A stretch of DNA of 64,000 nucleotides, taken from contig CAVXEP010000034.1 of the NCBI GenBank assembly GCA_963760795.1, positions 32,001-96,000 on the forward strand, read 5' to 3'. Below the pieces are notes generated by a model. The model was not told where the DNA came from and did no database searches. It worked only from the letters and a program-made list of their open reading frames with translations. Made by a program: the position numbers and the translations under genes. Position 1 is the stretch's first letter. Each line of letters starts with the position of its first letter. Positions 1,896 through 60,111 of this stretch are shown here, piece after piece. Origin of the DNA: an uncultured delta proteobacterium. Its GTDB lineage: Bacteria > Desulfobacterota > Binatia > UBA9968.

Positions 1896-3593
1896 ATGGC
1901 TTATGATCTCGTGATACGCGGTGGACGGGTGGTTGACGGTTCCGGCTTGCCGTCCTACGTGGCCGATGTCGGTGTCAAGGACGGTAAGGTCGTCGAAGTG
2001 GGCAAGCTTAAAGACGGCGCCGCGAAAACCATCGACGCCGCCGGGTTGGCAGTGTCGCCCGGTTTCATCGATCATCATACCCATCTCGACGCGCAGATGC
2101 TCTGGGATCCCTATGGCACCTGTGAGCCGCAGCATGGCGTGACCTCGGTGGTGATGGGCAACTGCGGCTTGTCCCTGGCACCGGTCAGGCCGGGCATCGA
2201 AGACGCCATCGTCAAAAGTTTCGTGCGCGTCGAAGCGATCCCGCGCATTGCTCTTGAGCAGGGCGTGAAATGGAACTGGCATAGCTACGGCGAGTATCTC
2301 GACAACTTCGAAGGCAAGGTCGGTATCAATGTCGGCGGTCTGGTCGGCCACATCGCCGTGCGCCATCACGCCATGGGCGAAGAAGCCGTAGAACGCAAGG
2401 CTACCGGCACGGAAGTGCAAAAGATGAAAGGCCTCGTGCTTGATGCCATGGAAGGCGGCGCCCTGGGCATGTCGACCAACCGCAACGACCGCCATATGCG
2501 CGAGGACGGCAAGCCGGTGTCGAGCCGCTTGGCCGACGACGACGAATTTTTCGCGCTTTGCGATGTCTTGGGCGAGCGCAATGCCGGGGTGATCGAAACC
2601 ATTTTGGGCCGCAACAAGGTCGAACATTTCGAGTGGTACCATGAATTGGCCAAACGGACTCAAAGACCGATCCTGTGGCAGAGCCTGCAACATCGCTGGT
2701 CCGAACCCAATCTCTGGCGCGAGCAGTTGGCCGCCGTCGAGCCGATCTTCAAAGCCGGCTATCAAGCCTACGGCTTGACCCATACGGTGCCGCTGGTGCG
2801 CCACTTCACGTTGAAAGATTGCCAGATTTTCGACGAGTTCCCGACTTGGAAAAATTTGATGTTTCTGCCGGTGGAAGTGCGCAAACAGGCGTTCGCCGAC
2901 GCCGACACCCGGACCAAGCTGCAGTATGAGATCGATAACATGCGCTTGACCAATTATCACAAGCGTTGGGATATCCCCAAAGTCGAGAAATGCTTCAAAC
3001 CGGAAAATCAAAAATATGTCGGCAAGACCATCGCCGAGATGGCGGCCATGCGCAATCAAAAGCCAATTGACGCTTTCCTCGATCTCGCTCTCGATGAAAA
3101 TCTCGAGACGATTTTCTGGAACGCCAACAACGGCGGCGACTGGAACGCCATGGGCGAAATCTTGCGCAGCCCCTATGTGCTGATCGGCACTTCGGACGCC
3201 GGCGCCCATGTGCTGTTCGGCGCGGACTTCGGTTACGGCACGATTCTTTTGGGCCTGTGGGTGCGTGAGCGCCAAGTGATGTCGTTGGAACAGGCGATTC
3301 ACAAACTGACCTTCCATCCGGCGTCGATCTTTGGCTTGCAGGGGCGCGGTTTATTGCGGCCGGGCTATGCCGCCGATTTCGCGATCTTCGATCCCGCAAC
3401 AGTTAACGCCGAGGAGCCTACGTGGGCCAATGATTTCCCGGCCAACACCAAACGCATGGTGCAGCAATCGGTCGGCATGCACTACACCATCGTCAACGGC
3501 ACTGTGATCAACGATCACGGGCGCATGACCGGCGATCTGCCCGGCCAAGTGATGCGCGGGCCGCTGTACCGTCAACATAAGGCGGCTGCGTAA
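1896..3593 (+). CDS. Amidohydrolase, N-acyl-D-amino-acid deacylase family
   Basis: PGFIDHHTHLD metal motif, GVTSVVMGNCG, SDAGAH; AGGAGG RBS. Confidence 0.9.
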   Translation: MAYDLVIRGGRVVDGSGLPSYVADVGVKDGKVVEVGKLKDGAAKTIDAAGLAVSPGFIDHHTHLDAQMLWDPYGTCEPQHGVTSVVMGNCGLSLAPVRPGIEDAIVKSFVRVEAIPRIALEQGVKWNWHSYGEYLDNFEGKVGINVGGLVGHIAVRHHAMGEEAVERKATGTEVQKMKGLVLDAMEGGALGMSTNRNDRHMREDGKPVSSRLADDDEFFALCDVLGERNAGVIETILGRNKVEHFEWYHELAKRTQRPILWQSLQHRWSEPNLWREQLAAVEPIFKAGYQAYGLTHTVPLVRHFTLKDCQIFDEFPTWKNLMFLPVEVRKQAFADADTRTKLQYEIDNMRLTNYHKRWDIPKVEKCFKPENQKYVGKTIAEMAAMRNQKPIDAFLDLALDENLETIFWNANNGGDWNAMGEILRSPYVLIGTSDAGAHVLFGADFGYGTILLGLWVRERQVMSLEQAIHKLTFHPASIFGLQGRGLLRPGYAADFAIFDPATVNAEEPTWANDFPANTKRMVQQSVGMHYTIVNGTVINDHGRMTGDLPGQVMRGPLYRQHKAAA

Positions 3594-3594
3594 T

Positions 3595-3924
3595 ATGGGA
3601 GTGAGTTATATTCCAGTTGCCCGCATCGGTGAGCTCACTCCCGGTGCCATGAAAGAGGTCGACCTCGGCGGACGCCAAGTGCTCTTGGCGTTCGCCGAGG
3701 GCAAGTATTATGCGTTCGCGCGCCAGTGTCCCCATGAAGAAGCGGATTTGAAAGAGGCCGGGCAGCTGTTCAATGTCAATGGCACGCAGATTCGCTGCAA
3801 CAATCATAGCTACTGTTTCGATCTCAAAACCGGCGACTGCACGCTGCCCAAAGGCGGCGCGCCGCTGACCGTGCTGCCTACCGAAGAACGCGGCGAAGAA
3901 GTTTGCATTCGCCTCGAGTGGTGA
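3595..3924 (+). CDS. Rieske [2Fe-2S] ferredoxin
   Basis: CPH...CNNH ligands, FDLKTG. Confidence 0.85.
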   Translation: MGVSYIPVARIGELTPGAMKEVDLGGRQVLLAFAEGKYYAFARQCPHEEADLKEAGQLFNVNGTQIRCNNHSYCFDLKTGDCTLPKGGAPLTVLPTEERGEEVCIRLEW

Positions 3925-3992
3925 AGCTTCCGTGGATTGCCGGCGCGACCCTCACTTGTCGCTCATTGCCGGCTGCAACTGCAAGGAAACCG

Positions 3993-4892
3993 ATGCGATA
4001 TAATCGCCTGCTATCGATCGCGCACCCGCTAGCGCTCGCGCTGGTTTGTGCCGCGTTGAGCGGGCAATTCGACAAGCTTTCGGCGCAGGAGAAAAGTTTT
4101 CTCTGGAAGGCGCAGGGGAGTGAAAACACGGTTTACATTCTCGGTTCGATTCATTTGCTCAAACGCGAGAGCGCGGCGTTGAAACCGCTCGTTCAGGAGG
4201 TTTTCGGCAAAAGCAAACGTTTGGTGTTCGAAATCGATCTGCTCAAGGAGGGTCCGGATAAAGTTCAACAACTGTTGATGCAGAAAGGCGTCAATCTCGA
4301 CGGTAAGATGTTGCCGCAGCAGTTGTCGCCGGAGACTTACGAATTGGCCAGGCAGAAGGCCGGCGAGCTGGGCATCGATATCAAGCTTTTAGCGCCGCTC
4401 AAACCTTGGGTGGTCGCGCTGACGATGGTGGTGATGCAGCTACAGAAGCTCGGTTATGATCCGAGCCTGGGGATCGATCACCAACTGGCGCAGCGCGCCA
4501 AGCAAGAGAACAAGCCGGTGTCCGGTTTGGAAACCGCCGAGTTCCAAATGGATATTTTCAACGAATTGACGGCGCCGCAGCAGGATATGTTCCTGCGCCA
4601 GTCGTTGCAGGAAATGGACCAATTGGAGAAAGCTGTCGACGATATGGTCGGCGCGTGGAACAGCGGGGATGTCGCTCGCGGCGAGCGGCTATTTTTGGAT
4701 AGCATACGCGCTTACCCTGAGCTGAAAGACAAAGTTCTCGACGCGCGCAACCGCCGCTGGATACCGCAGATCGAACAGCTCTTGAAACAAAACCAGGATG
4801 TTCTCGTGGTGGTCGGTACGGCGCATTTGGTCGGCAAATCCGGCGTTATCGAGTTACTCAAAGATCGCGGCTACAGATTGGAGCAGATGTAA
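3993..4892 (+). CDS. TraB/GumN family protein
   Basis: YILGSIH, GLETAEFQ, RNRRW, VVVGTAHL motifs; signal peptide after ATG 3993. Confidence 0.85.
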   Translation: MRYNRLLSIAHPLALALVCAALSGQFDKLSAQEKSFLWKAQGSENTVYILGSIHLLKRESAALKPLVQEVFGKSKRLVFEIDLLKEGPDKVQQLLMQKGVNLDGKMLPQQLSPETYELARQKAGELGIDIKLLAPLKPWVVALTMVVMQLQKLGYDPSLGIDHQLAQRAKQENKPVSGLETAEFQMDIFNELTAPQQDMFLRQSLQEMDQLEKAVDDMVGAWNSGDVARGERLFLDSIRAYPELKDKVLDARNRRWIPQIEQLLKQNQDVLVVVGTAHLVGKSGVIELLKDRGYRLEQM

Positions 4893-35511: not shown

Positions 35512-38152
35512 TCACTCACCGTACTGCTGAATCAGTTTTGCCACCAGCGCGGTCCAGCCGGTTTGGTGGCTGGCGCCGATGCCGGCGCCGTTGTCGCCGT
35601 GGAAATATTCGTGGAACGGGATCAAGTCGCGCCAGTGCGGGTCGTTTTGGAATTTTTCCGTGCCGCCGAACACCGGGCGGTGGCCGTTTTGATCTTCAGT
35701 GAAGATACGCGTCAAGCGTTGCGATAGCTCCCCGGCGATCTCCCAGAGATTCATCTTGTTGCCGGAGCCGGTCGGACACTCGACTTTGAAGTTGTCGCCG
35801 AGAAAAAAATGGAATTTCTGCAGCGACTCGATGAGTAAATAATTGACCGGGAACCAGATCGGGCCGCGCCAGTTGGAGTTGCCGCCGAACATGCCGGTGG
35901 TCGATTCCGCTGGCTCGTAGTCGACGCGGTAGTCCATGCCGTTGGCTTTGAGCGTGTATGGGTGGTCGCGATGGTAGCGCGAGACGGCGCGGATGCCGTA
36001 GAGCGACAGGAATTCATTCTCATCCAACATGTAATGAAGCACGCGTTTCAGTCGATGCCGATTGACCAGGGAGAGAAAGCGGCGCGGACCGTCGTCGGTG
36101 GACTCGGTTTCGATGTTCTCGCTGAGCTCCGGGCGGTTCTCGATAAACCATTGCATGCGCCGTTTGAAGCCCGGCAATTTGTCGACCACCGTTGGGTCTA
36201 AAGTTTCCACGGCGAAGAGCGGGATCAAGCCGACGAGGGAGCGGACTTTCAGGTGCGAACGTTGTCCGTTCGGCAGCGACAAGACATCGTAGAAAAATCC
36301 GTCTTTGGCGTCCCACAATTCGATATTCTCGCCGCCGAGATTGTTCATGGCACTGCAGATGTAGACGAAATGCTCGAAGAACTTGCTGGCGACATCTTCG
36401 TAGGTGGGGTTGTCCTTGGCGAGTTCCAAGGCGATCGCCAACATGTTGAGACAATACATGCCCATCCAGCTGGTGCCGTCGGACTGCTCGATAAATCCGC
36501 CGGTGGGCAACGGCTTGCTGCGATCGAAGACACCGATGTTGTCGAGGCCGAGAAAGCCGCCCTGGAAAACGTTGCGCCCAGTGGCGTCTTTGCGGTTGAC
36601 CCACCAGGTGAAGTTCAAGAGTAATTTTTGGAAAATCCGTTCGAGGAATTTGCGGTCGCCTTCGCCGCGCCGTTTCATCTCGACTTTGTAGACACGCCAG
36701 GCCGCCCAGGCATGGACCGGCGGATTGACATCGCCGAAGGCCCACTCGTAGGCAGGAAGCTGGCCGTTGGGATGCATGTACCACTCGCGGGTCATTAACA
36801 ATAATTGTTCTTTGGCAAACGTCGAGTCGACGATTGCCAAAGCGACGCAGTGAAAGGCCAGATCCCAAGCGGCGTACCAGGGATATTCCCACTTGTCCGG
36901 CATCGAGATGACATCCGCGTTATAGAGGTGGCGCCATTCGTGATTGCGGCCGGCGGCGCGCTCCTTGGGCGGATCGGCGCTGCCTGGATCGCCTTTGATC
37001 CAACGATTGACGTCGTAGTAGTAAAACTGTTTGCTCCACAACAGTCCGCCCAAGGCTTGGCGCATGACGTTCTTCCGGTCCGCGGGCACGCCATCGGGAC
37101 TCACCATGGCGTAAAACTCATCCGCTTCATTGCGCCGTTGCGTGAATAACTCTTCGAATTTGCCGTCGAGGGCGTTCAGTTTGCCGGGCGCGCCGTCGCT
37201 AAGGCGCAATCGCACCGCGATCGTCTGGCCAGGCGCGACGGTCATCTGATAATGCGCCGCACCCTTGGTGCCGGTCGCCGCCGGATTGACCGCCTGCTTG
37301 GCGCCGTGAACGATGTATTCATTGATACCGTCTTTGACGTAGGCCGATTCGTTTGCCAAGCCAAAGAGGCGCTGCGCGTTGGTTTCGTTGTCGGTGAACA
37401 GCAACTCGGGTCTGCCTTCGCAGTAGAGCCAGCGGCTGCCGTAGTAGTTTTGATTGAGCTTGATCGCCGTCACTTGGCCGGCTTCCTCGCGGTTGAGTCT
37501 GGGCTTGCGCGCATCCAAGCCCCAGGACCAGGTGTTGCGGAACCAGACCGTTGGCAAGAGGTGCAAGGGCGCGGCCTCGGTGCCGCGATTGGTGGCCTCG
37601 ATACGGATCAAAATATCGTCAGTGCCGCCCTTGGCGTATTCGATCACAACGTCGAAATAACGATTGTCGTCGAAAACGCCAGTGTCGATGAGTTCGAACT
37701 CCTTATCGCCTTTGCCGCGCCGGCGGTTTTCTTCAACCAGCCGCCCGTAGGGAAATTCCGCTTGCGGGTACTTGTAGAGGAATTTCATGTAGGAGTGGGT
37801 CGGCGTCGAGTCGAGATAAAAATAATACTCTTTAACGTCTTCGCCGTGGTTTCCTTCGTTGCCGGTGAGGCCGAAGAGGCGTTCTTTCAAGATCGGATCT
37901 TTGCCGTTCCACAGGGCCAGGGCGAAGCAAATATACTGATGGCGGTCGGAGATGCCGCCGAGCCCGTCTTCGCCCCAGCGGTAGGCTCGGCTGCGCGCGT
38001 GATCGTGCGGGAACGAATCCCACGCGGTGCCGTAGGCGACTGTAGTCTTCGCGCACCGTGCTCCACTGGCGCTCGGACAAGTAAGGTCCCCAGCGTTTCC
38101 AGTTGGCTTTGCGGGCGCGGTCCTGTTGCAGGCGGAGTTCTTCCTGGGTCAC
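35512..38152 (-). CDS. MGH1-like / GH63 glucosidase (frameshift near 38040)
   Basis: [46 protein letters not shown]. Confidence 0.92.
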
Positions 38153-42945: not shown

Positions 42946-43297
42946 ATGTCGGATCACTATCATGACGAGAACGACTTGAAGTTGATGCGCGAGATGCGCA
43001 AGCTGGCGCCGGACGATTTTAACGCCTGGCTCGGCCTCGAGAAAACTGTCGGGCGCGATGGCGGTGCGATTCCCCGTAAGTACCGCGAGTTGATTGCTAT
43101 CGCCGTGTCGGCGACGACCCAGTGTCCGTACTGCATGGAAGCCCACGCCAAAGCGGCACACGCCGCTGGCGCGACGCGGCGAAGAAGTTGTCGAAGCGTC
43201 TTTTATCGCTGCGGCACTGCGTGCCGGAGCGGCAGCAACCCACGGCGCCATGGCGCTCAAGTTTTTCGACAGGCAGGCGGAGCAGAAGAAGGAATAG
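42946..43297 (+). CDS. Carboxymuconolactone decarboxylase/AhpD family protein (frameshift near 43180)
   Basis: KYRELIAIAV...QCPYC..H; AAALRAGAA. Confidence 0.88.
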
Positions 43298-51808: not shown

Positions 51809-52198
51809 ATGCTCTCTTCGGTTTACTTAATCCTTGGCGGTATCCTATTACTTGCCACCTTGGGCCGGGTGGTTGTTCGCGGCGGAGCCAAAGGAACTGA
51901 CTGGGCGCTTGAAACCGCATTTATCCGTCTCGACTTCCCGCCTGAGCATAGAGCCGTAGCGCAGCAACTCGCCGCCGGTCTCGCCGAAGTCGTCGGCATG
52001 AAGATCAAGCAGTTGACGCCGGACCATAATCTAACTCAGATCGCGGATTGGGCCGATGACCGGATCGACGCCAAGGATCTGATCACGCTATTCGTCGTCG
52101 CCTTTCACGTCAGATGCGATTCGAACACCACCTTTCGCGCTCTGGTCGAGAAGGTTGCCAATAAGAAGGCCGCGGATAGCGGTAAGAGGGCCGTGTAA
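51809..52198 (+). CDS. Hypothetical protein with N-terminal membrane anchor
   Basis: Clean 129-aa ORF, hydrophobic N-terminus, host-like codon usage. Confidence 0.65.
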   Translation: MLSSVYLILGGILLLATLGRVVVRGGAKGTDWALETAFIRLDFPPEHRAVAQQLAAGLAEVVGMKIKQLTPDHNLTQIADWADDRIDAKDLITLFVVAFHVRCDSNTTFRALVEKVANKKAADSGKRAV

Positions 52199-52325
52199 TG
52201 GACTGTTGGGCAAACTTTGGTTGTTCCTGAAGCTACGAACGGAGAATTTGACGGTTGGCAACGTTTACTTGCCGGCGACGTGTGCGATGCCATACTGATC
52301 GTCGACTCCTGACCACTATTTAACC

Positions 52326-52997
52326 ATGATCAAAGCACTGATCTTCGATTTCGACGGCATCATCATCGATAGCGAAAGTCCGGAACTATTGGCCTGGCAG
52401 GAAGTCTTCGCTGCCCACGGGAGGGAGCTTGACTTGGACGTCTGGGCCGATCTGGTCGGCCGGCCGGGCAACCACTTCGATCTCTACCGATACTTTCAAG
52501 AGCATATCGATCCCGTCGCCGACATCGATGCTCTGCGCATAGAGCGGCGTGCCCGGGTCATCGCGTTGACGGAAGCGCAGCCGGTATTGCCGGGAGTGGA
52601 GGATTACTTGCGCGGCGCTTTCGATCTCGGCTTGAAAATTGGCATGGCGTCGAGTTCTTCGGCGAACCATGTGCGCGGACACTTACAACGGCTCGAACTA
52701 CTACAATACTTCCACACGACCAAATGTTTCGAGGACACCGAAGCCCATAAGCCCGAACCGGCGCCCTATCGAGCGGTGCTCGACGAGCTCGGTGTCGCTC
52801 CTCATGAAGCCGTGGCGTTCGAGGATTCGCCCAACGGCGTGACCGCAGCGCGGGCGGCTGGCATCTTTTGCGTCGCCGTGCCCAATCCGGTGACCTGTCG
52901 CTTGCCGCTGGATCATGCCGATCATCGTTTGGCGTCCCTCGCCGATGAAGCGCTCGAACAACTCCTGATGCGGGCGCTGGCGAAGATTACATCGTGA
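52326..52997 (+). CDS. HAD-IA family hydrolase
   Basis: FDFDGIIIDSE, ASSS, KPEP, FEDSPNG. Confidence 0.92.
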   Translation: MIKALIFDFDGIIIDSESPELLAWQEVFAAHGRELDLDVWADLVGRPGNHFDLYRYFQEHIDPVADIDALRIERRARVIALTEAQPVLPGVEDYLRGAFDLGLKIGMASSSSANHVRGHLQRLELLQYFHTTKCFEDTEAHKPEPAPYRAVLDELGVAPHEAVAFEDSPNGVTAARAAGIFCVAVPNPVTCRLPLDHADHRLASLADEALEQLLMRALAKITS

Positions 52998-53134
52998 ACG
53001 GCGTAATTGGGCGCATGTTACTTTGGCCGGCAACTTCATGCCATATTGGTACCGTTGGAGTTGCGCCGGATTCGATCTGGTTGTTGCCGGTTATGTGCTG
53101 GGACGATTTGCCAAGTCATAGAAAAGGAAATGTC

Positions 53135-54130
53135 ATGCTCCACCTTTTCAGCTTCGTTGTCGCGATTCTTATCGGTCTTCTTTCCCTCATTGCTCCCGTG
53201 GCGGCGCAGCCTTTGGAGAAACTGCGCTTGGCCTACAGCGCCATCGCCGGTTCGCAGGCGTCATTTTGGATTCCCTACGAAGCGGGGGTTTTCCGCAAGC
53301 ATGGATTGGACGTCGAATTACTTTACGTTGGCGGCGGCGGGCGCGCGGCGCAAGTGGTGCAGTCGGGCGAAGTGCCGATCGGGACTTTTACCGGTGGTGC
53401 GGTCGTCAATGCCAATCTGGCGGGCGGCGACCTGGTCATCATCGCCAGCTCACTGAACGTGTTTACCTTCGTCGTCATGGCCAAGCCCGAGATCCGCGGC
53501 GTGGAAGATTTGAAAGGGAAAAAGATCGGCATCTCGCGCTTTGGCTCGGCAACCGACTTTGGCTTGCGCTTCGCGGAGAGCCAATGGCCGATCAAGCGGC
53601 AGCGGGATTTTGCCGTGATCCAGATCGGCGGCGTGACCGACATCTTGGCGGCGCTTCGAACCGGCGCCGTCGATGCCGGCGTGATCAACGCCGAGCTCGC
53701 CATCCTGGCGCGCCGGGACGGGTTTCGCGACGTTGCCGATATTTCAAAGATGGGTCTGAGCTTTCCCACCTCGTCGATTGTCAGCACTCGTTCCTACATC
53801 AAGCGCAATGAAAACACGGTCAGAAAATTCATCCGGGCATACGCTGAGGGCGTCCACTTCGCCAAGACGCAGCGCGCTTTCAGCGTCCAGGTCATGAGTA
53901 AGTATATGCGCAACAATGACGTCGCGTTGGTCAACGATCTCTACGATTTGTACATTGTGCAGAATATCCCGAGGATACCGCGGCCAACGCCGGAGCCGAT
54001 AAAAACCGTCCTCGACCAAATTGCCGAAACCGACCCGCGGGTTGCCAGCCTCAAACCGGAGCAGTTTATCGACGGACGGTTTTTTGCCGAGCTGGAGAAG
54101 GAAGGGTTTATTCAGAAGCTGTGGAAATGA
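53135..54130 (+). CDS. ABC substrate-binding protein, NMT1/THI5 family
   Basis: Signal peptide, GVFRKHGLDVEL, DLKGKKIGISRFGS. Confidence 0.9.
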   Translation: MLHLFSFVVAILIGLLSLIAPVAAQPLEKLRLAYSAIAGSQASFWIPYEAGVFRKHGLDVELLYVGGGGRAAQVVQSGEVPIGTFTGGAVVNANLAGGDLVIIASSLNVFTFVVMAKPEIRGVEDLKGKKIGISRFGSATDFGLRFAESQWPIKRQRDFAVIQIGGVTDILAALRTGAVDAGVINAELAILARRDGFRDVADISKMGLSFPTSSIVSTRSYIKRNENTVRKFIRAYAEGVHFAKTQRAFSVQVMSKYMRNNDVALVNDLYDLYIVQNIPRIPRPTPEPIKTVLDQIAETDPRVASLKPEQFIDGRFFAELEKEGFIQKLWK

Positions 54131-54145
54131 GAATGAGTCGAATGA

Positions 54146-54218
54146 GGTTAACTACTGTGCCCACCCGCAGCCGCGTGGTGGCAACGGCGCGGCTGTCGGG
54201 TGCAGCGGAGGGTTAGAC
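54146..54218 (-). other. attC site 4 (terminal, partly degenerate)
   Basis: Minus strand GTCTAAC..gctgcacccgacagccgcg / cgcggctgcgggtg..GTTAACC. Confidence 0.8.
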
Positions 54219-54221
54219 GGT

Positions 54222-55610
54222 TCATCGCAGGTCCGGATCTGGATCTCGGGTAACGGGCTTCAGGCCGATGTGGTCGGCCATTTCAGCGCCCGTGAAGTTC
54301 TCCGTGAAACTTGCCGCTGTTTCCGGGAGCATCGTCGCGTTCCACGTGTTCCACTCGCCAACGAGTCGATCGTATATGTCGCGGTGGCGGTCCCTGAGGT
54401 TGGCACGTTCGAGCGGATCGGCGACCACGTTGAACAAGAACGTGTTGTCGAGAATCTTGAGGTATTTCCAGTCCCCAATGCGAGCCGCTCGCTGCCACAA
54501 CGACTTGTAACGCCAGAACAGCCTACGCTCCACGATCGGCACCCCTTGGGCGAGATGAGGTAGAAGGTTCATCCCGTCTGACGGATAGCCCGGATCGGCG
54601 TCGACGCCCGCGGCGCCTAGCAAGGTGGGAAGCCAGTCCATGTTGACCGTCACCTGCTCGCTGACGCGCCCGGCGGCAATGCGCGCCGGCCATGACACGA
54701 TCGCGGGAATCCTTAGACCACCTTCAAGTAACTCCATCTTCTTGCCAGTGAATGGCCAGGTGTCGGAGAAGCGCTCGCCCCCGTTGTCGCTGGTGAAAAT
54801 CACGATCGTGTCCCGGTTGATGCCGTTCTCCTCCAGGGCGACAAGTACCCGGCCGATTTGCGTGTCCATCGCCACAACAATTCGACGGTAGGTCTCCTGC
54901 GACCCGCCGTCCCAGTGGATCAGATCGCGGCCACGCAGGCGCTCCGCCTCTGCCTGATCCCCCGGCGCTTCCCATGGCCAATGCGGGGCGTTGAAGTGCA
55001 GACTAAGCAGGAACGGCCGTCCGGTCTGCGCATAGTCCCGGATGACAGTGACAGCCCGATCGCCGAACAGGTCCGTACTATACCCTTCTTCCGAAATCGG
55101 CGTGTCCTTATCCCAGAAGTCGGGCGCCCCCCTACGCCCCGTGTGGAAGTAGTAATCCAGGGTTCCACCGCGGTAACCGTAGAAGTGGTCGTAGCCGCTC
55201 TTGAGCGGGCCGAAATCTGGCAAACCGCCCAGATGCCACTTGCCAATCAACGTGGTGCCGTAACCGCCCTTCCGCAGCAGCGAGGGGAGTGTTGGGTGCT
55301 CGGGTGGTAGGCCGACGCCGGGCGGGCTGTTGGCCGATAGCGGCTCCTCCAGACCGACGGGCATTCGAAGTTGGTAACGACCGGTGATGATCGCCACGCG
55401 CGACCCCGTGCATACGGGCGAGCTCGCATAGCCCTGTGTGAATCGCACGCCTTGCGCAGCCAACCGATCGATGTTCGGCGTGACCAGATCACGACGACCG
55501 TAGCACGACACGTCTGCGTAACCCATGTCGTCAGCAATGATGAACACGATGTTCGGCCGTCGGGCTTGCGGCTGCACGCGACGCGTGATTTCGTCTGTCA
55601 TCGGTCCCAT
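54222..55610 (-). CDS. Sulfatase (arylsulfatase A-like), cassette 4
   Basis: PNIVFIIADDMG, CTGSR, GKWHLG, APHWPW, SDNGG, EGGLRIP. Confidence 0.93.
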   Translation of the reverse strand: MGPMTDEITRRVQPQARRPNIVFIIADDMGYADVSCYGRRDLVTPNIDRLAAQGVRFTQGYASSPVCTGSRVAIITGRYQLRMPVGLEEPLSANSPPGVGLPPEHPTLPSLLRKGGYGTTLIGKWHLGGLPDFGPLKSGYDHFYGYRGGTLDYYFHTGRRGAPDFWDKDTPISEEGYSTDLFGDRAVTVIRDYAQTGRPFLLSLHFNAPHWPWEAPGDQAEAERLRGRDLIHWDGGSQETYRRIVVAMDTQIGRVLVALEENGINRDTIVIFTSDNGGERFSDTWPFTGKKMELLEGGLRIPAIVSWPARIAAGRVSEQVTVNMDWLPTLLGAAGVDADPGYPSDGMNLLPHLAQGVPIVERRLFWRYKSLWQRAARIGDWKYLKILDNTFLFNVVADPLERANLRDRHRDIYDRLVGEWNTWNATMLPETAASFTENFTGAEMADHIGLKPVTRDPDPDLR

Positions 55611-55659
55611 CGTGATCCTTTACGTGGAGTAGTAGTAGTCCTCGCGGTCCCAGGTTGCC

Positions 55660-55744
55660 GTCTAACGCGATGCCGCTGAGCCGTCGTCGCGGATATACCA
55701 GTCAAGTGCCATAGCCAATTATCGGCTCAAGCTACGGGTTAGGG
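55660..55744 (-). other. attC site 3
   Basis: Minus strand (G)CCCTAAC..gcttgagccg / cggctcagc..GTTAGAC. Confidence 0.85.
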
Positions 55745-56172
55745 CTATCGGCTCGCACCAGAAACCGCCTGTTCAACAAAAGAGACAATCTCAGCTACTG
55801 AAACGTTGAAAACACCACCTTTTGCGCTCTTCCAGTCGGCGTAACCAGGCTGGAAATCTGGAAACGACACGTTCGACGTAGATAGTTTGGTAACACTCTT
55901 CTCCAACGCCACTCTGGCAACGGGCGCGTGCGGTAGTTCAATCAGAATGCCTTTCGGACCTTTAACCTTCACTCCAACGATACTGATATGAAAAACGTCT
56001 CCAAGCTTCGGAGCGCGATCTACTTTTGCGATCCTTAGCAGGGAGCCAGTCTCACCGGGGCGGGTCTTATATTCCCACACCGGCCCTCGGCAAAGCACTG
56101 CGCGGAAACTTGACCGGAACCAAGAAACCCCAAACCAATCAAAGCCAATCCCCAGAGTTTCATCTTCGTCAT
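55745..56172 (-). CDS. Secreted hypothetical protein, cassette 3 (frameshift near 56083)
   Basis: MTKMKLWGLALIGLG... signal peptide continues after one indel into VWEYKTRPGE...HAP...GY..WK..KGGVF. Confidence 0.75.
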
Positions 56173-56174
56173 AG

Positions 56175-56261
56175 CCCTAACGGCATGCGGCCAAGCCGTG
56201 GCAAACAAGCGAGCCTGAAAGGCGAGCGCTCTCGACATCAGACTTAAGCCGCGGGTTAGCC
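56175..56261 (-). other. attC site 2
   Basis: Minus strand GGCTAAC..cggcttaag / cttggccg..GTTAGGG; the upstream gene's TAA stop lies inside R''. Confidence 0.8.
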
Positions 56262-56681
56262 AGCCGCCCAAGAACTTCGAACGCTACCCGGCGGAACTCG
56301 TGTTTCAATGTATCGAGCGACAGCTCCCAGTTCCGGAAACTGCGACCTCCCGAGCGTGAGGTGCGCAGAGCCACGGTAAACGGCGATGCCAGGGATTGTT
56401 CCCGTGCCACTCAGATGTGCCTCTGTGATTTCTGTCCAGATCCACTGCTGCCTCCCCCGAATCGTTATGAACGAGACGCCCTCATCAGAAATCCGAACCA
56501 TCGACTGAAAAATACTAGTGACGATAACCCAGCAAGCGAACAGTACGAGCATGGCCGCGAAGACACCGAGGCCGTCACTTATTAGAAGGGTTAGCCCAAG
56601 AGCACCGGCCACGGCGCCGACTACGCATGCCACGATAGGTGATCGAGTTCGAAACTCATTCATTGTCATCGGATAGGGCAA
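56256..56681 (-). CDS. Hypothetical membrane protein (two TM helices plus a PH-like beta domain), cassette 2
   Basis: Fills the space between attC1 and attC2; hydrophobic N-half; VRISDEGV...W.W.EI pattern; alternative ATG at 56669. Confidence 0.7.
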   Translation of the reverse strand: MPYPMTMNEFRTRSPIVACVVGAVAGALGLTLLISDGLGVFAAMLVLFACWVIVTSIFQSMVRISDEGVSFITIRGRQQWIWTEITEAHLSGTGTIPGIAVYRGSAHLTLGRSQFPELGAVARYIETRVPPGSVRSSWAAG

Positions 56682-56691
56682 TTGTCAGCCT

Positions 56692-56748
56692 GGCTAACGC
56701 TGTGCCGCTGAGCGATCTTATCAGATTCGCTCAAGCGGCGGGTTATCT
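56692..56748 (-). other. attC site 1
   Basis: Minus strand AGATAAC..ccgcttgagcga / tcgctcagcgg..GTTAGCC, 57 bp. Confidence 0.88.
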
Positions 56749-56760
56749 CGATGGGAACGT

Positions 56761-57117
56761 TCACGCAAGGACGTTCAAAGTAGCCGCTGCTCTCCGGAAC
56801 GGCTTGTCCAACGTCCAAATTGCGCACCTTGTGAGCAACGTCGAAGCGAGAAGATGAGCATCCACCCAACCGATACCCCGCCCGTATAAACGCTGCGCTT
56901 CTATGAACCTCATGATTTCCTCATGTTCCAGCAAATGAGCCTCGGGCAAGGCTTTCAACATGCTCAAAATCTCGACCCGTTTGTGTAACGTTCCGCAAGC
57001 CAATTCACCTATAACGAACGGATGGCAAAGAACTTGTTCGTCAAGTAGCAGACCTCTTAGACGATCACTTCCCGCTCGGAAATGCTCGACCCAGACCGAG
57101 GTGTCAACGAGAATCAT
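56761..57117 (-). CDS. vapC: PIN-domain toxin VapC, cassette 1
   Basis: ILVDTSVW, HPFVIGELACG, GIGWVDAHLLAS, WTLDK. Confidence 0.92.
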   Translation of the reverse strand: MILVDTSVWVEHFRAGSDRLRGLLLDEQVLCHPFVIGELACGTLHKRVEILSMLKALPEAHLLEHEEIMRFIEAQRLYGRGIGWVDAHLLASTLLTRCAIWTLDKPFRRAAATLNVLA

Positions 57118-57320
57118 GCAAAGCGGCGGGGACGACGTCTCCGAATACTGCGAAGCCGCTTCTCCGTACCCCCGAGATTGGCTAAACGGCGGGCACTCTC
57201 TTTGGCAATGAGAGCCTCAAGCCCCAAGCGTACCAAGGAAGTCTTTTCCTCGACTCCAGTCAGCTTGGCAGCGTCCCTTAAAAGAGAATCATCAATGTTG
57301 AGCGTTGTTCTCATATGCAT
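57114..57320 (-). CDS. vapB: Antitoxin VapB, cassette 1
   Basis: MRTTLNIDD.LL..A, KT.LV..GL.AL, ARRLA.LGG; 4-nt overlap with vapC. Confidence 0.92.
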   Translation of the reverse strand: MHMRTTLNIDDSLLRDAAKLTGVEEKTSLVRLGLEALIAKESARRLANLGGTEKRLRSIRRRRPRRFA

Positions 57321-57323
57321 ATT

Positions 57324-57352
57324 AGGATGCCCGAATCATGCATACGGGTCAA
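57324..57352 (-). promoter_or_regulatory. Putative vapBC promoter inside the cassette
   Basis: TTGACC-17-CATCCT, with ATGCAT palindromes in the spacer and at the start codon. Confidence 0.55.
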
Positions 57353-57361
57353 GTGTGGAAG

Positions 57362-57385
57362 AGATAACTATTGAGTGAACTGATC
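57362..57385 (-). other. Putative attI site
   Basis: GTTATCT core complements attC1 R'' (AGATAAC); no attC hairpin upstream. Confidence 0.65.
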
Positions 57386-57419
57386 TCGTATATTGGATAT
57401 CCAACAATCATCAATTCGA

Positions 57420-57449
57420 AATTTACTCCTGCAATCAACAGGTTGTCAA
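57420..57449 (-). promoter_or_regulatory. Putative cassette promoter Pc
   Basis: TTGACA-18-TAAATT pointing into the array, about 50 nt upstream of the attI core. Confidence 0.55.
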
Positions 57450-57525
57450 TTGTCACTGCCGCTCGTATAGCCAATATCGCTGGTCACGTATATTCAATAT
57501 ACGAGCACTGCGGACCCGTTGCTTG

Positions 57526-57615
57526 CAGTCCGTCGGCCTGAGTACGCACGTCCTAGCCGCCACGATTTAGCGTATGCGCGTAGATCATCGTCGTGCCAAC
57601 ACCGCGCTGCACAGT
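57526..57615 (-). pseudogene. intI: 3' relic of an integron integrase (tyrosine recombinase box II and tail)
   Basis: Reads TVQ-RGVGTTMIYAHTLNRGG*DVRTQADGL versus the IntI pattern TVQELLGHxDVSTTMIYTHVLNRGGxGVRSPxDxL. Confidence 0.82.
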
Positions 57616-57711
57616 TAGTTCCGGGGCAGAGACGAAGGCGATTCTTCTAACTAGAATCGGCTCCATTGTGATACTTGACAACACAGCGAATTTGAGGAGA
57701 GTTTCTATCCC

Positions 57712-58305
57712 ATGAGTAATTTGAACGGGCGAATCTGTGTGTTCACTGGTTCCCGCCATGGGCTTCGTCCGGAATATGCCGCCGTCGCCAAGCAACTCGG
57801 CCGCGAACTGGTCGCGCGCGGCTACGGCCTTGTCTATGGCGGCGGCAAAGTCGGTTTGATGACGGTGATCGCGGACATGGTTCTGGAATTGAAAGGACAT
57901 GTCACCGGTGTGATTCCCAATTCGTTGGTTGGCAAAGAAGTTGCGCACTTGGGCTTGACCGCTTTGCGCGTGGTCGATTCGATGCACGAGCGTAAGGCGC
58001 TGATGGCGGAGTTATCCGACGGTTTTATCGCCATGCCGGGCGGTATCGGCACCATGGAAGAGTTGTTCGAGGTTCTTAGTTGGGCGCAGTTGGGGTTGCA
58101 TGAGAAGCCCTGCGCATTGTTGAATGTCGCGGGATACTACGATCCGCTGATTCAGTTTCTCGATCGTGCTGTCGAGCAGGATTTTATTAAGGCGAAGCAT
58201 CGCGCGTTGCTGATTGTGGAAAGCGACCCGGGCGCGTTGCTCGATGGATTTGCCAAACTGATTGTGGTTCATGCGGCGAAAATATTCGACGCGAAGGTGA
58301 CCTAG
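57712..58305 (+). CDS. LOG family nucleotide monophosphate nucleosidase (TIGR00730-like)
   Basis: LVYGGG.VGLM, MHERK, PGGIGTMEE. Confidence 0.93.
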   Translation: MSNLNGRICVFTGSRHGLRPEYAAVAKQLGRELVARGYGLVYGGGKVGLMTVIADMVLELKGHVTGVIPNSLVGKEVAHLGLTALRVVDSMHERKALMAELSDGFIAMPGGIGTMEELFEVLSWAQLGLHEKPCALLNVAGYYDPLIQFLDRAVEQDFIKAKHRALLIVESDPGALLDGFAKLIVVHAAKIFDAKVT

Positions 58306-58346
58306 CGCACTAAGAAATCGCAGCGGTCGCAGGACAGGGAGGAATC

Positions 58347-59366
58347 ATGTCATTTTTCCTTTGTTTGGCCCTCTTGTTTGGTTTCGGTGTTCCTTGGCCA
58401 TTTGTCACTGAGGCCGGCGCACAAACCGCGGCGTCGTCCGCCGCATTGATCGAGGCCGCTAAAAAAGAAGGCCAGGTGGTTTTCTACACACCGCTCAACA
58501 TCAACGACTCCCGGCCGCTGTTGCAACGCTTCGAGCAGAAATATCCGTTTATCAAAACCGATCTATTGCGCATGAGCGCCGAGCCGCTGCTCAACCGCAT
58601 TGTCACCGAAGACCGCGCCGGGCGGAACGTCGTCGACGTGATCAACAATACCGTGATCACCGCCTTGAAGAAGGCGCGTTTGCTGCAGCCCTATCGTTCG
58701 CCCGAGTTCCCCGCGTACCTCGATCAGTTCAAAGATCCCGAGGGCTCTTGGGCCTCGCTCAACAACAATTACTACGTGCTTGGCTACAACACCAAGCTGG
58801 TGAGTGCCAAGGAAGCACCGACGGACTGGCAGGATCTGCTGCATCCCAAGTGGCGCGGTAAAATCGGCATGGACCAGGAAGAATTTGAATGGTTCGCCGC
58901 TACCACGGATGTTTGGGGACGGGAGCGCGCGGGCAAATATCATCGCGCCCTGGCGCAGCAACAGATCAACTGGCGCAAGGGACACACTTTGATCTCCCAG
59001 CTGATCGCCGCCGGCGAATTTCCCATTGGCGTCGTTTACGCGCATCGCATCGAGTCGATGAAGAAAGCCGGCGCGCCCATCGAGTGGGTCAAGACGGTGA
59101 ATCCAGTGTTCGTATCACTTGCGCCGGTGGCATTGGCAGCAAAAGCGCCCCATCCCAACGCGGCGCGTCTGCTGCTCGATTTCTTACTCTCGAAAGATTC
59201 CCAGCAGTTTTTGCGCAACTCCAATCGCATTTCCGGACGCGCCGACGTCGAGCCGCTGGTGCCGGAAATGCATCATAGCAAACTGAAACTGACCGCCATC
59301 GATCCGCAGATCGCCGAGGATTTGAATCGCCACGCCAGCGAGTTCCGCGAGATTTATTTTCGCTAG
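58347..59366 (+). CDS. Extracellular solute-binding protein (Fe3+/thiamine ABC type)
   Basis: AKKEGQVVFY, YNTKLV, DLLHPKWRGK, APHPNAA. Confidence 0.88.
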   Translation: MSFFLCLALLFGFGVPWPFVTEAGAQTAASSAALIEAAKKEGQVVFYTPLNINDSRPLLQRFEQKYPFIKTDLLRMSAEPLLNRIVTEDRAGRNVVDVINNTVITALKKARLLQPYRSPEFPAYLDQFKDPEGSWASLNNNYYVLGYNTKLVSAKEAPTDWQDLLHPKWRGKIGMDQEEFEWFAATTDVWGRERAGKYHRALAQQQINWRKGHTLISQLIAAGEFPIGVVYAHRIESMKKAGAPIEWVKTVNPVFVSLAPVALAAKAPHPNAARLLLDFLLSKDSQQFLRNSNRISGRADVEPLVPEMHHSKLKLTAIDPQIAEDLNRHASEFREIYFR

Positions 59367-59391
59367 TCCGCATAGCTCGGATTCGGAAATT

Positions 59392-59504
59392 TCTCTCGCA
59401 AAGGCGCAAAGACGCTAAGTTCGGAGGGGAGTTATAGAGCGTTCTTGCGAACGCTCCACAACCGTGTTTTCCGAACTTTGTGGCCCCGGCGTTTTTGCGG
59501 GAGA
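59392..59504. repeat. CGCAAAG-periodic inverted-repeat element
   Basis: tctcgcaaaggcgcaaagacgctaagttcgga ... tccgaacttt...tttgcgggaga, with an internal gagcgttc/gaacgctc hairpin. Confidence 0.65.
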
Positions 59505-59607
59505 CACTCCGAAATTTCGCTGCTAATTGCTGTGCAAGCGCTACCGTTTTACTTGCGATTTCTGCTATTCAGATGAGATACATGAAGAGAAGGAGCGGCT
59601 TATTTGA

Positions 59608-60111
59608 ATGGACTCGCATGCAAGGGTTTTGACCAATCTTGAGCGCCGAACTCTCGAAGCGATCGCCGAGCGGATTTTTCCCAAGACCGAGAGTCCCGGC
59701 GCGATCGAAATCGGCGCGGTGGATTATATCGAGATCGCCTTGGCCGGCGATTACGCGCCGTTGTTGCCGCTCTATCGCGCCGGTGTGAAATCGCTCAACC
59801 GCCACGCCAAGACGAAGTGCGCTGGACAGTTCGCCCGCCTCGACGAGAAACAGCAGGATGAGGTTCTCAAAGACTGCGAATCCGGCGCGGTGGCGGGATT
59901 CAAAAAAGCCGCGGAGTTTTTCGACATGGTCAAATATCATGTCTTCGAGGGACTGTTCTGCGAGCCGCACTATGGCGGCAATAAAAACATGGACGGTTGG
60001 CGGGCGGTGGGATTTCCCGGCCAACAGTGGGGTTACCCAGATCCCTATGTCAATAAGCCGGTCGACATCGCGCCGGTGGCGGTGGACTACACCAAGGCGG
60101 AGATGAAATAA
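59608..60111 (+). CDS. Gluconate 2-dehydrogenase subunit 3 family protein
   Basis: RIFP...PGA, EGLF..P.YGGN..M.GW...GFPG; no clear Tat signal. Confidence 0.88.
   Translation: MDSHARVLTNLERRTLEAIAERIFPKTESPGAIEIGAVDYIEIALAGDYAPLLPLYRAGVKSLNRHAKTKCAGQFARLDEKQQDEVLKDCESGAVAGFKKAAEFFDMVKYHVFEGLFCEPHYGGNKNMDGWRAVGFPGQQWGYPDPYVNKPVDIAPVAVDYTKAEMK

Follow-up and report, generated by a model that had tools for sequence, protein, structure and literature searches.

Four attC-ended cassettes beside an intI remnant: a probable integrase-less integron platform in an uncultured soil bacterium

The locus comprises four cassettes, an attI site and an intI remnant

The stretch of DNA analysed here (the window) comprises 64,000 nucleotides of contig CAVXEP010000034.1 and comes from a metagenome-assembled genome (MAG) of an uncultured delta proteobacterium, which is 88.9% complete with 6.15% contamination. 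On its minus strand, from 57368 down to 54146, four units stand head to tail, each starting with GTTA and ending in an imperfect palindrome that runs from ..TAAC to GTTA (Table 1). In all four cases this terminal site opens with ..TAAC directly past a stop codon and closes with GTTA. An attI site and a stump of the integron integrase gene intI precede the first unit on the same strand, so that intI and the attC sites are co-oriented. We read 54146-57640 of the minus strand as a chromosomal integron platform that appears to have lost its integrase, made up of a 5'-deleted intI stump, an intact-looking attI and four cassettes ending in attC sites. Judged from sequence and its comparison with relatives, this reading has a probability of about 0.9.

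An initial annotation of the window had placed four attC hairpins on the minus strand, had given the sizes of the four cassettes, and had taken them for an integron array of units that integrated as circles. Positions and sizes proved exact, and the array is upheld by its head-to-tail tiling and by homology that ends at GTT. The intI stump, the attI, the same-strand (“inverted”) layout and the absence of an intact integrase from the assembly had all been missed. Genes on the plus strand flank the platform on both sides, and both flanks are syntenic across the genus; the stop codon of the solute-binding protein gene lies 16 nt away from attC4. In base composition the array does not stand out, its GC content being 0.48-0.63 against 0.54-0.62 in the flanks.

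Table 1. Coordinates of the platform, its cassettes and its flanks. Positions are those of the window; cassette lengths are counted from TT to G; R2 is the covariance model described in the text.
Feature	Position	Strand	Evidence or remark
LOG-family gene, integrase-side chromosomal flank	57712..58305	plus	Pfam Lysine_decarbox 1.9e-43; syntenic in genus
intI pseudogene stump, about last 36 codons	57523..57640	minus	translation, TIGR02249, DNA alignment
attI site, 158 nt	57365..57522	minus	homology to attI of intact integrons
attI direct repeats, three of 17-21 nt	57385-57401, 57462-57478, 57485-57501	minus	
Candidate Pc promoter TTGACA-18-TAAATT inside attI	57420..57449	minus, facing cassettes	10/12 positions
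Cassette 1, 670 bp: vapB, PIN-domain vapC, attC1	56698..57367	minus	Pfam, R2 43.2 bits, G019 homology
vapB	57320-57114	minus	Pfam VapB_antitoxin 8.1e-16
vapC, PIN-domain	57117-56761	minus	Pfam PIN 3.8e-10
attC1	56748-56692	minus	57 nt
Cassette 2, 517 bp: predicted membrane protein, attC2	56181..56697	minus	R2 51.0 bits
Cassette 2 gene, 141-aa predicted membrane protein	56681-56256	minus	no Pfam family above cut-off
attC2	56261-56175	minus	87 nt
Cassette 3, 515 bp: secreted-protein gene, attC3	55666..56180	minus	R2 52.4 bits
Cassette 3 gene, small secreted protein, apparently frameshifted	signal-peptide frame 56172-56035, main frame 56098-55745	minus	translations
attC3	55744-55660	minus	85 nt
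Cassette 4, 1514 bp: sulfatase-family gene, attC4	54152..55665	minus	Pfam, G019 homology
Sulfatase-family gene, 462 aa	55610-54222	minus	Pfam Sulfatase 7.4e-65
attC4	54218-54146	minus	73 nt; divergent
NMT1-type solute-binding protein gene, other flank	52994..54130	plus	Pfam NMT1 2.4e-22

The cassette ends chain head to tail beyond chance

The start of each cassette is an exact complement of its own R'' end over 8, 9, 11 and 9 nt in cassettes 1 to 4 (GTTATCTC, GTTAGCCAG, GTTAGGGCTAT and GTTAGACGG, respectively), just as had been noted for 8-11 bp. Such complements of 8 nt were nevertheless rejected as evidence by themselves, since shuffles yield as many: the window holds 4 distinct pairs of at least 8 nt (8 when both strands are taken), against a mean of 6.8 in block shuffles counted in the same way. 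The head-to-tail chaining of these complements, unlike the single pairs, is beyond chance. There are three chained couples per strand against a shuffle mean of 0.01, and none of 200 shuffles reached three. Because single pairs are equally frequent in shuffles, only the chaining is informative.

Folding of the bottom strands had been suggested as a check, and it gave a divided result. The z-scores are -3.5 for site 1, -1.8 for site 2, +0.05 for site 3 and -3.9 for site 4, thus significant for sites 1 and 4 only, and folding of the top strand resembles that of the bottom strand.

Sites 1-3 belong to one attC family that accompanies integrases

A scan of positions 52000-60000 against Rfam at E<=10 returned three chance-level matches, all with E above 5 and none at the sites. 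As no Rfam family covers them, we built covariance models of our own. Model R1 was made from window sites 1-3, and model R2 from 18 sites outside the window, namely those of locus L009 (positions 396000-414000 of contig C32 in the window's own genome, G000) and of loci in genomes G013, G014 and G019. Filters were off in the searches of the whole window with R2 and in the R1 search that found the L009 sites.

With R1, 8 further sites (E<=10), all on one strand, were found in L009, the second locus of the same genome, and many more in relatives. Over the whole window, R2 scored site 3 at 52.4, site 2 at 51.0 and site 1 at 43.2 bits, the next match reaching 12.8 bits. Genome-wide, the same model gave 14 matches at E<=1: three in the window array, six in C32:401610-418884 and five single ones. 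Nine of the 14 thus fall into two clusters, and in both cases the cluster lies downstream of an intI remnant whose strand it shares. Two R1 matches elsewhere in the window, at 43150-43230 (21 bits) and 35746-35839 (15 bits), dropped to 8.9 bits or vanished with R2 and were taken as chance. A strict hand-made hairpin scan of the genome was also set aside, having recovered only attC1 of the four sites; it did point to the sites on C32.

Sites 1-3 share one consensus, about YTAACCCGYNGCTTGAG ... CTCAGCSGCAYNGCGTTAG, which is also found beside intact integrases in congeneric genomes. Matches to attC2 and attC3 at 74-91% occur in 15 of 60 family genomes (one of them, G093, unpublished) and in 14 of 23 genera, including the window's own. 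These two sites represent two distinct repeat types of about 85 nt, the centres of which are also conserved at 74-91% (loci L102-L104). Because their centres are conserved across many genera, both types resemble lineage-specific repeats such as the Vibrio cholerae repeats (VCRs).

The cores of attC sites are degenerate 7-mers, RYYYAAC and GTTRRRY. TAAC and GTTA cores are present in 4/4 window sites, and the full 7-mer consensus in one of four R'' and one of four R' boxes. R2 model alignments of sites 1-3 reveal an L''/L' stem whose '' arm carries an extrahelical base, and in which the 5' arm GCNGC-T-TGAG stands against CTCA-GCNGC; one T is left unpaired on the top strand, corresponding to an A on the bottom strand. 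The L stem of site 4 follows another register, and its bulges are again on the '' arm. The bulged top-strand T is found in three of the four window sites and in 17 of 18 related sites. The earlier proposal that the extra L'' base is T or G on the top strand can therefore be kept, as a T, for sites 1-3 and for the related sites, site 4 being set apart by its register.

The intI stump adjoins an attI shared with intact integrons

Translated on the cassette strand, the stump reads ..PELTVQRGVGTTMIYAHTLNRGG and, past an in-frame TAG (57555-57553), DVRTQADGL; the normal stop is lost. Positions 290-313 of TIGR02249 align to it across one TAG at 11 bits (E 0.85), and the DNA, aligned to intact intI genes at their 3' ends, backs its identity more strongly. 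Window positions 57365-57596 are 86.6% identical to C32:400498-400729, and the attI together with the intI 3' end is 81% identical to a copy with intact intI in G013:C15 and 74% identical to one in G005. Aligned across five loci, the sequences match one another over the intI end and the next 158 nt; right after CAATRGTT all likeness is lost. Among the matches listed (the search had 87 more), all 8 to the attI stretch in the genus start at window 57363-57366. The attI and its crossover, GTT at 57368-57366, can be regarded as defined, because homology to intact integrons stops there. The three attI repeats and the crossover are conserved across the aligned loci. As to the candidate promoter, two sites of this kind were found against 1.8 expected in shuffles, and its TTGACA is invariant in the five attI regions aligned.

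No intact integrase is found in the assembly, and a larger array lies on another contig

None of the 15 TIGR02249 matches (E<=10) in the window's own genome is above the 265-bit cut-off for an intact intI; because the assembly is only 88.9% complete, an intI may possibly lie in the missing part. The highest-scoring match, on C32, is a larger piece of intI that lies just downstream of lexA (the identity of LexA was confirmed); a homologous attI and a larger array come after it. Other matches are XerC- and XerD-like genes, as read from their context.

The C32 locus is the main integron of the genome (L009, 3370-16500), with lexA at 3370-3978, a 5'-deleted intI at about 4131-4570 and the attI crossover at about 4728. 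Foreign sequence of about 135 nt interrupts its intI fragment between the codons for ..ELLGH and ..DVSTTMIY, and downstream of the fragment lie at least 15 R2 matches (E<=0.5) on the plus strand. A third, more diverged C-terminal intI remnant (EVSTTMIYTHVLNRNGKEVRSPADGL) occurs within this array at L009 10770-10850 and is followed by an attI-like stretch. The sequence suggests that the C32 array may consist of two integrons in tandem. Off both arrays there are single attC-like sites with R2 scores of 24-37 bits (G000:C1:204757-204820, C25:2132-2219, C9:102336-102395, C32:68891-68960 and C12:356768-356832), and the hand scan gave another one at G000:C3:23226-23276; these may be lone cassettes or chance matches.

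Relatives carry intact integrases with attC sites on the same strand

Among 60 relatives, 21 have TIGR02249 matches at E<=1e-30, 11 of them above the cut-off; without the unpublished G004 and G035 the figures are 19 of 58 and 9. One intact IntI protein, at G013:C15, scores 465.6 bits against the cut-off of 265. R1 matches lie on the intI strand in 22 of 24 cases at three loci. Over 44 IntI loci, a subset of the 68 returned from which the shortest and most distant were left out, all 29 R2 matches (E<=0.001) are on the intI strand, and about 25 of the 29 are downstream of intI by position.

Integrases 45-84% identical to that of G013 are present in MAG records (L033-L100) labelled Nitrospira, Elusimicrobia, Acidobacteria, Verrucomicrobia, Thermoanaerobaculia and others, and wherever attC matches are present at these loci, they share the strand of intI. 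The records with the closest IntI bear conflicting labels, such as “uncultured delta proteobacterium”, “Candidatus Binatia bacterium” and “Chloroflexota bacterium”, among others. A literature search joining “integron” and “Binatia” found no paper. At G013:C15:166000-205000 (L024/L025) two intact intI genes stand 18 kb apart on one strand, and an attC array of its own follows each gene. The distal gene lies downstream of lexA and a 23S_rRNA_IVP-family gene, the same neighbourhood as that of the broken copy in G000:C32.

The platform itself is variable among the relatives. In G011 about 20 nt separate the solute-binding protein stop from the LOG start, which is an empty site; in G019 the platform is absent and a small plus-strand gene is found in its place. 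In G013:C14 the same stump-attI-LOG structure is present (941 nt collinear, 83% identity) and the distal flank is also shared, with cassettes entirely different from those of the window, one of them bearing a DUF2283 gene. G003 has a somewhat longer stump beside LOG, no attI, and 11.9 kb of other genes; the G029 locus has one R2 match (26.4 bits) and a gene read as sensor-kinase-like. The truncated platform, present in both G000 and G013 with unlike cassettes, thus seems to predate at least two species, its content varying.

Cassettes 1 and 4 occur in other contexts

A copy of the sulfatase cassette (window 54149-55667) is present in G019:C30 at 97% identity, which ends at GTTA, and the vapBC cassette (56694-57368) is 90% identical to one located 8 kb off the sulfatase copy in the same array. 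For both cassettes the homology to G019 stops at GTT at either end. What precedes the vapBC cassette is an attC in G019 and the attI in the window. Logan contigs from four metagenome runs of four studies cover cassettes 1 and 4 at 90-99% identity and pass into unlike sequence at 56694, 57368 and 55665-55667. Among the sequencing runs, the share of sampled words was 0.29 at most.

The coding parts of cassettes 2 and 3 have no match in the 60 family genomes; nor did the four runs cover bins 55776-56177 and 56312-56579, which hold these coding parts, and from this we draw no inference. Cassettes 1 and 4 thus display both marks of a gene cassette, that is, different contexts and end complementarity; for cassettes 2 and 3, only the complementary ends and the attC family can be cited. 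The idea that the cassettes had been gathered from different sources is supported only in part, and not in the form given. Because the attC consensus recurs in congeneric genomes, attC2 and attC3 have matches across the family and cassettes 1 and 4 (90% and 97% in the genus) circulate within the genus, the cassette pool looks lineage-internal.

Some metagenome contigs join position 55684 to 57365 (X9), or 55685/55689 to 56729 with 35-39 other letters in between (X9 and X10). These joints were not used as cassette order, as their sides are short and the attC consensus common to the sites may have produced them. Bin 54704-54837 has a very high depth (up to 1177 in X9), which we read as a conserved sulfatase motif common to many organisms and not as a property of the cassette.

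The cassettes encode a toxin-antitoxin pair, a sulfatase-family protein and two proteins without a known family

Two ATGCAT palindromes lie just upstream of vapB (57330-57290, minus strand) and could serve as an operator through which the toxin-antitoxin pair regulates itself. For the predicted membrane protein of cassette 2, the only lead in the atlas is to bPH_6-like clusters. A one-base offset near 56100 separates the signal-peptide frame (MTKMKLWGLALIGLGFLGSGQVSA..) of cassette 3 from its main frame (..VWEYKTRPGETG..), so the split gene is either a pseudogene or the result of an assembly indel; clusters resembling its protein are 128-143 aa long. No Pfam or NCBIfam family was found for the cassette 3 protein, and NCBIfam adds nothing for cassette 2 either. 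Type I sulfatases usually carry the motif C-x-P-x-R. In the sulfatase-family protein of cassette 4, which lacks an obvious signal peptide, the motif reads C-T-G-S-R, and this protein, judged by its motif, might not mature in the usual way. Content of the array is mostly of unknown function, with no antibiotic-resistance genes.

An integron platform without integrase is the most plausible explanation

Following established integron biology, the cassettes would have entered as circles through recombination catalysed by IntI, in which the folded attC bottom strand recombined with attI at GTT. Since an integrase is missing in cis and no intact copy was found in the assembly, the array is probably static today unless IntI comes in trans. 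Expression might start from the promoter-like site inside attI and from promoters borne by the cassettes, and the vapBC pair may stabilise the array.

Several observations weigh against this explanation. Sites 2 and 3 fold no better than shuffles, their pairing being confined to the R and L boxes, which flank a long unstructured middle part. With R2, site 4 is a marginal match (rank 6, 11.7 bits, E about 1), and the R1 search at E<=10 gave no match there. However, the copy of attC4 in G019, with three differing positions inside the site, scores 31.7 bits with R2, and we therefore regard site 4 as a real but divergent or drifting attC. The R2 test is not fully independent, because its training sites were chosen with R1; the location of these sites beside intact integrases is independent of R1. 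By itself the intI stump is a weak match (E 0.85). Finally, the insertion history is not simple, because the closest relative by flank identity (G019) is without the platform at this locus.

It might also be assumed that the platform is still active, with an intact IntI, encoded in the unassembled part of the genome or by incoming DNA, acting in trans on the orphan attI and attC sites, so that cassettes are still gained and lost. The entirely different cassettes on the truncated platform (941 nt, 83%) and distal flank common to G000 and G013 would fit this scenario, as would the two intact intI genes on another contig of G013, the 88.9% completeness of the G000 assembly, and the conservation of the attI repeats and crossover. 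On the other hand, no TIGR02249 match among the 15 in G000 is above the cut-off, the cassette differences could also stem from homologous exchange among arrays or from the platform having been acquired separately, and both the apparent frameshift in cassette 3 and the drift of attC4 from its G019 homologue fit decay. Taken together, we consider ongoing activity unlikely.

A broader idea is that the intI 3' end and attI form a detachable docking module, integrase-less copies of which outlast species and swap cassettes by means of integrases acting in trans, so that one genome would possess several docks and one integrase or none. This would cover the platform shared by G000 and G013, the three intI remnants of G000 and the two tandem intact integrons of G013, and we put it forward as a tentative possibility.

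The truncated integrase or the array junction could be an artefact of mis-assembly or of a mis-binned contig, as the genome is a MAG with incomplete recovery and some contamination. This is very improbable, given that the stump-attI-LOG structure is also present in the genome of an independent species (G013:C14), that a larger stump stands beside LOG in G003, and that both flanks are syntenic across the genus. Equally improbable is insertion of the cassettes at a secondary, non-attI site by an integrase located elsewhere, without any resident platform ever; although it is named as one origin of such clusters in the part of Cury et al. 2016 (PMC4889954) drawn on here, it is contradicted by cassette 1 abutting a 158-nt attI homologue past the intI 3' end. 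That the hairpins are ordinary intergenic palindromes (repetitive extragenic palindrome (REP)-like repeats or terminators) among normal chromosomal genes and resemble attC by chance is hardly credible, for the shuffle-like stability of sites 2 and 3 and the chance frequency of single 8-nt complements are outweighed by the non-random tiling, the 29/29 same-strand co-occurrence with intI in relatives, homology ends at GTT, the empty site in a relative and the conservation of attI.

An integrase-less platform of this kind adds a cleanly delimited case, with attI, crossover, attC family and cassette borders all defined, from uncultured soil bacteria, in which such elements are usually known only from PCR amplicons or software calls. 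One truncated platform with different cassettes in two species makes a natural pair for asking if an attI without integrase still receives cassettes, and the lineage-specific attC consensus with its bottom-strand A bulge could serve to tag cassettes of this group in soil metagenomes. There is no clinical bearing.

The array is a documented example of a known element type

Sedentary chromosomal integrons, such as the Vibrio cholerae superintegron, have lineage-specific attC repeats and toxin-antitoxin cassettes. The window array is like this superintegron in its lineage-wide conserved attC family, its toxin-antitoxin cassette and its chromosomal location. It differs in its small size (4 cassettes) and in its secondary status, the genome having a larger array on another contig, downstream of lexA.

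In the portion of Cury et al. (2016, NAR, PMC4889954) relied on here, an attC-site cluster lacking integron-integrases (CALIN) is made up of two or more attC sites grouped on one strand without an integron-integrase, and intI remnants are reported near 15 of 279 CALINs. In the window array three sites score 43-52 bits and a fourth is marginal, by the in-house R2, and no intact intI was found in the assembly. The array lacks the functional adjoining intI of a complete integron, and has the attI at the array head, as recognized by homology to G013:C15 and G005. It is thus a CALIN with a neighbouring intI pseudogene and a preserved attI, of the inverted type, with its attC sites counted by R2. 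Like the CALINs with an intI pseudogene, it has attC sites on one strand, an intI remnant nearby and no functional intI; unlike CALINs as described there, its attI is kept and was delimited by comparison, and a second species has the same platform with other cassettes.

An “inverted integron-integrase” layout, e.g. in certain Treponema spp., is noted in the sections of PMC4889954 and PMC3607928 used here. The window is similar in that intI is co-oriented with the attC sites and cassettes and that attI lies just past the intI 3' end. The hosts here are uncultured soil MAGs and the integrase is only a stump.

According to the part of Larouche and Roy (2011, PMC3053210) considered here, the usual pattern of extrahelical bases on the bottom strand is T-N6-G; non-canonical bases occur as well (attCdfrA1, A-N7-8-C), and integrases vary in their tolerance. 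The window family resembles these class 1-type sites in its R''/R' AAC and GTT cores, its L''/L' stem, unpaired at one base of the '' arm, and its variable centre, and departs from T-N6-G in having a bottom-strand A as the single L-stem bulge. We read this A as a lineage variant that implies no new mechanism, and the array as a well-documented example of a known element type and not as a new type.

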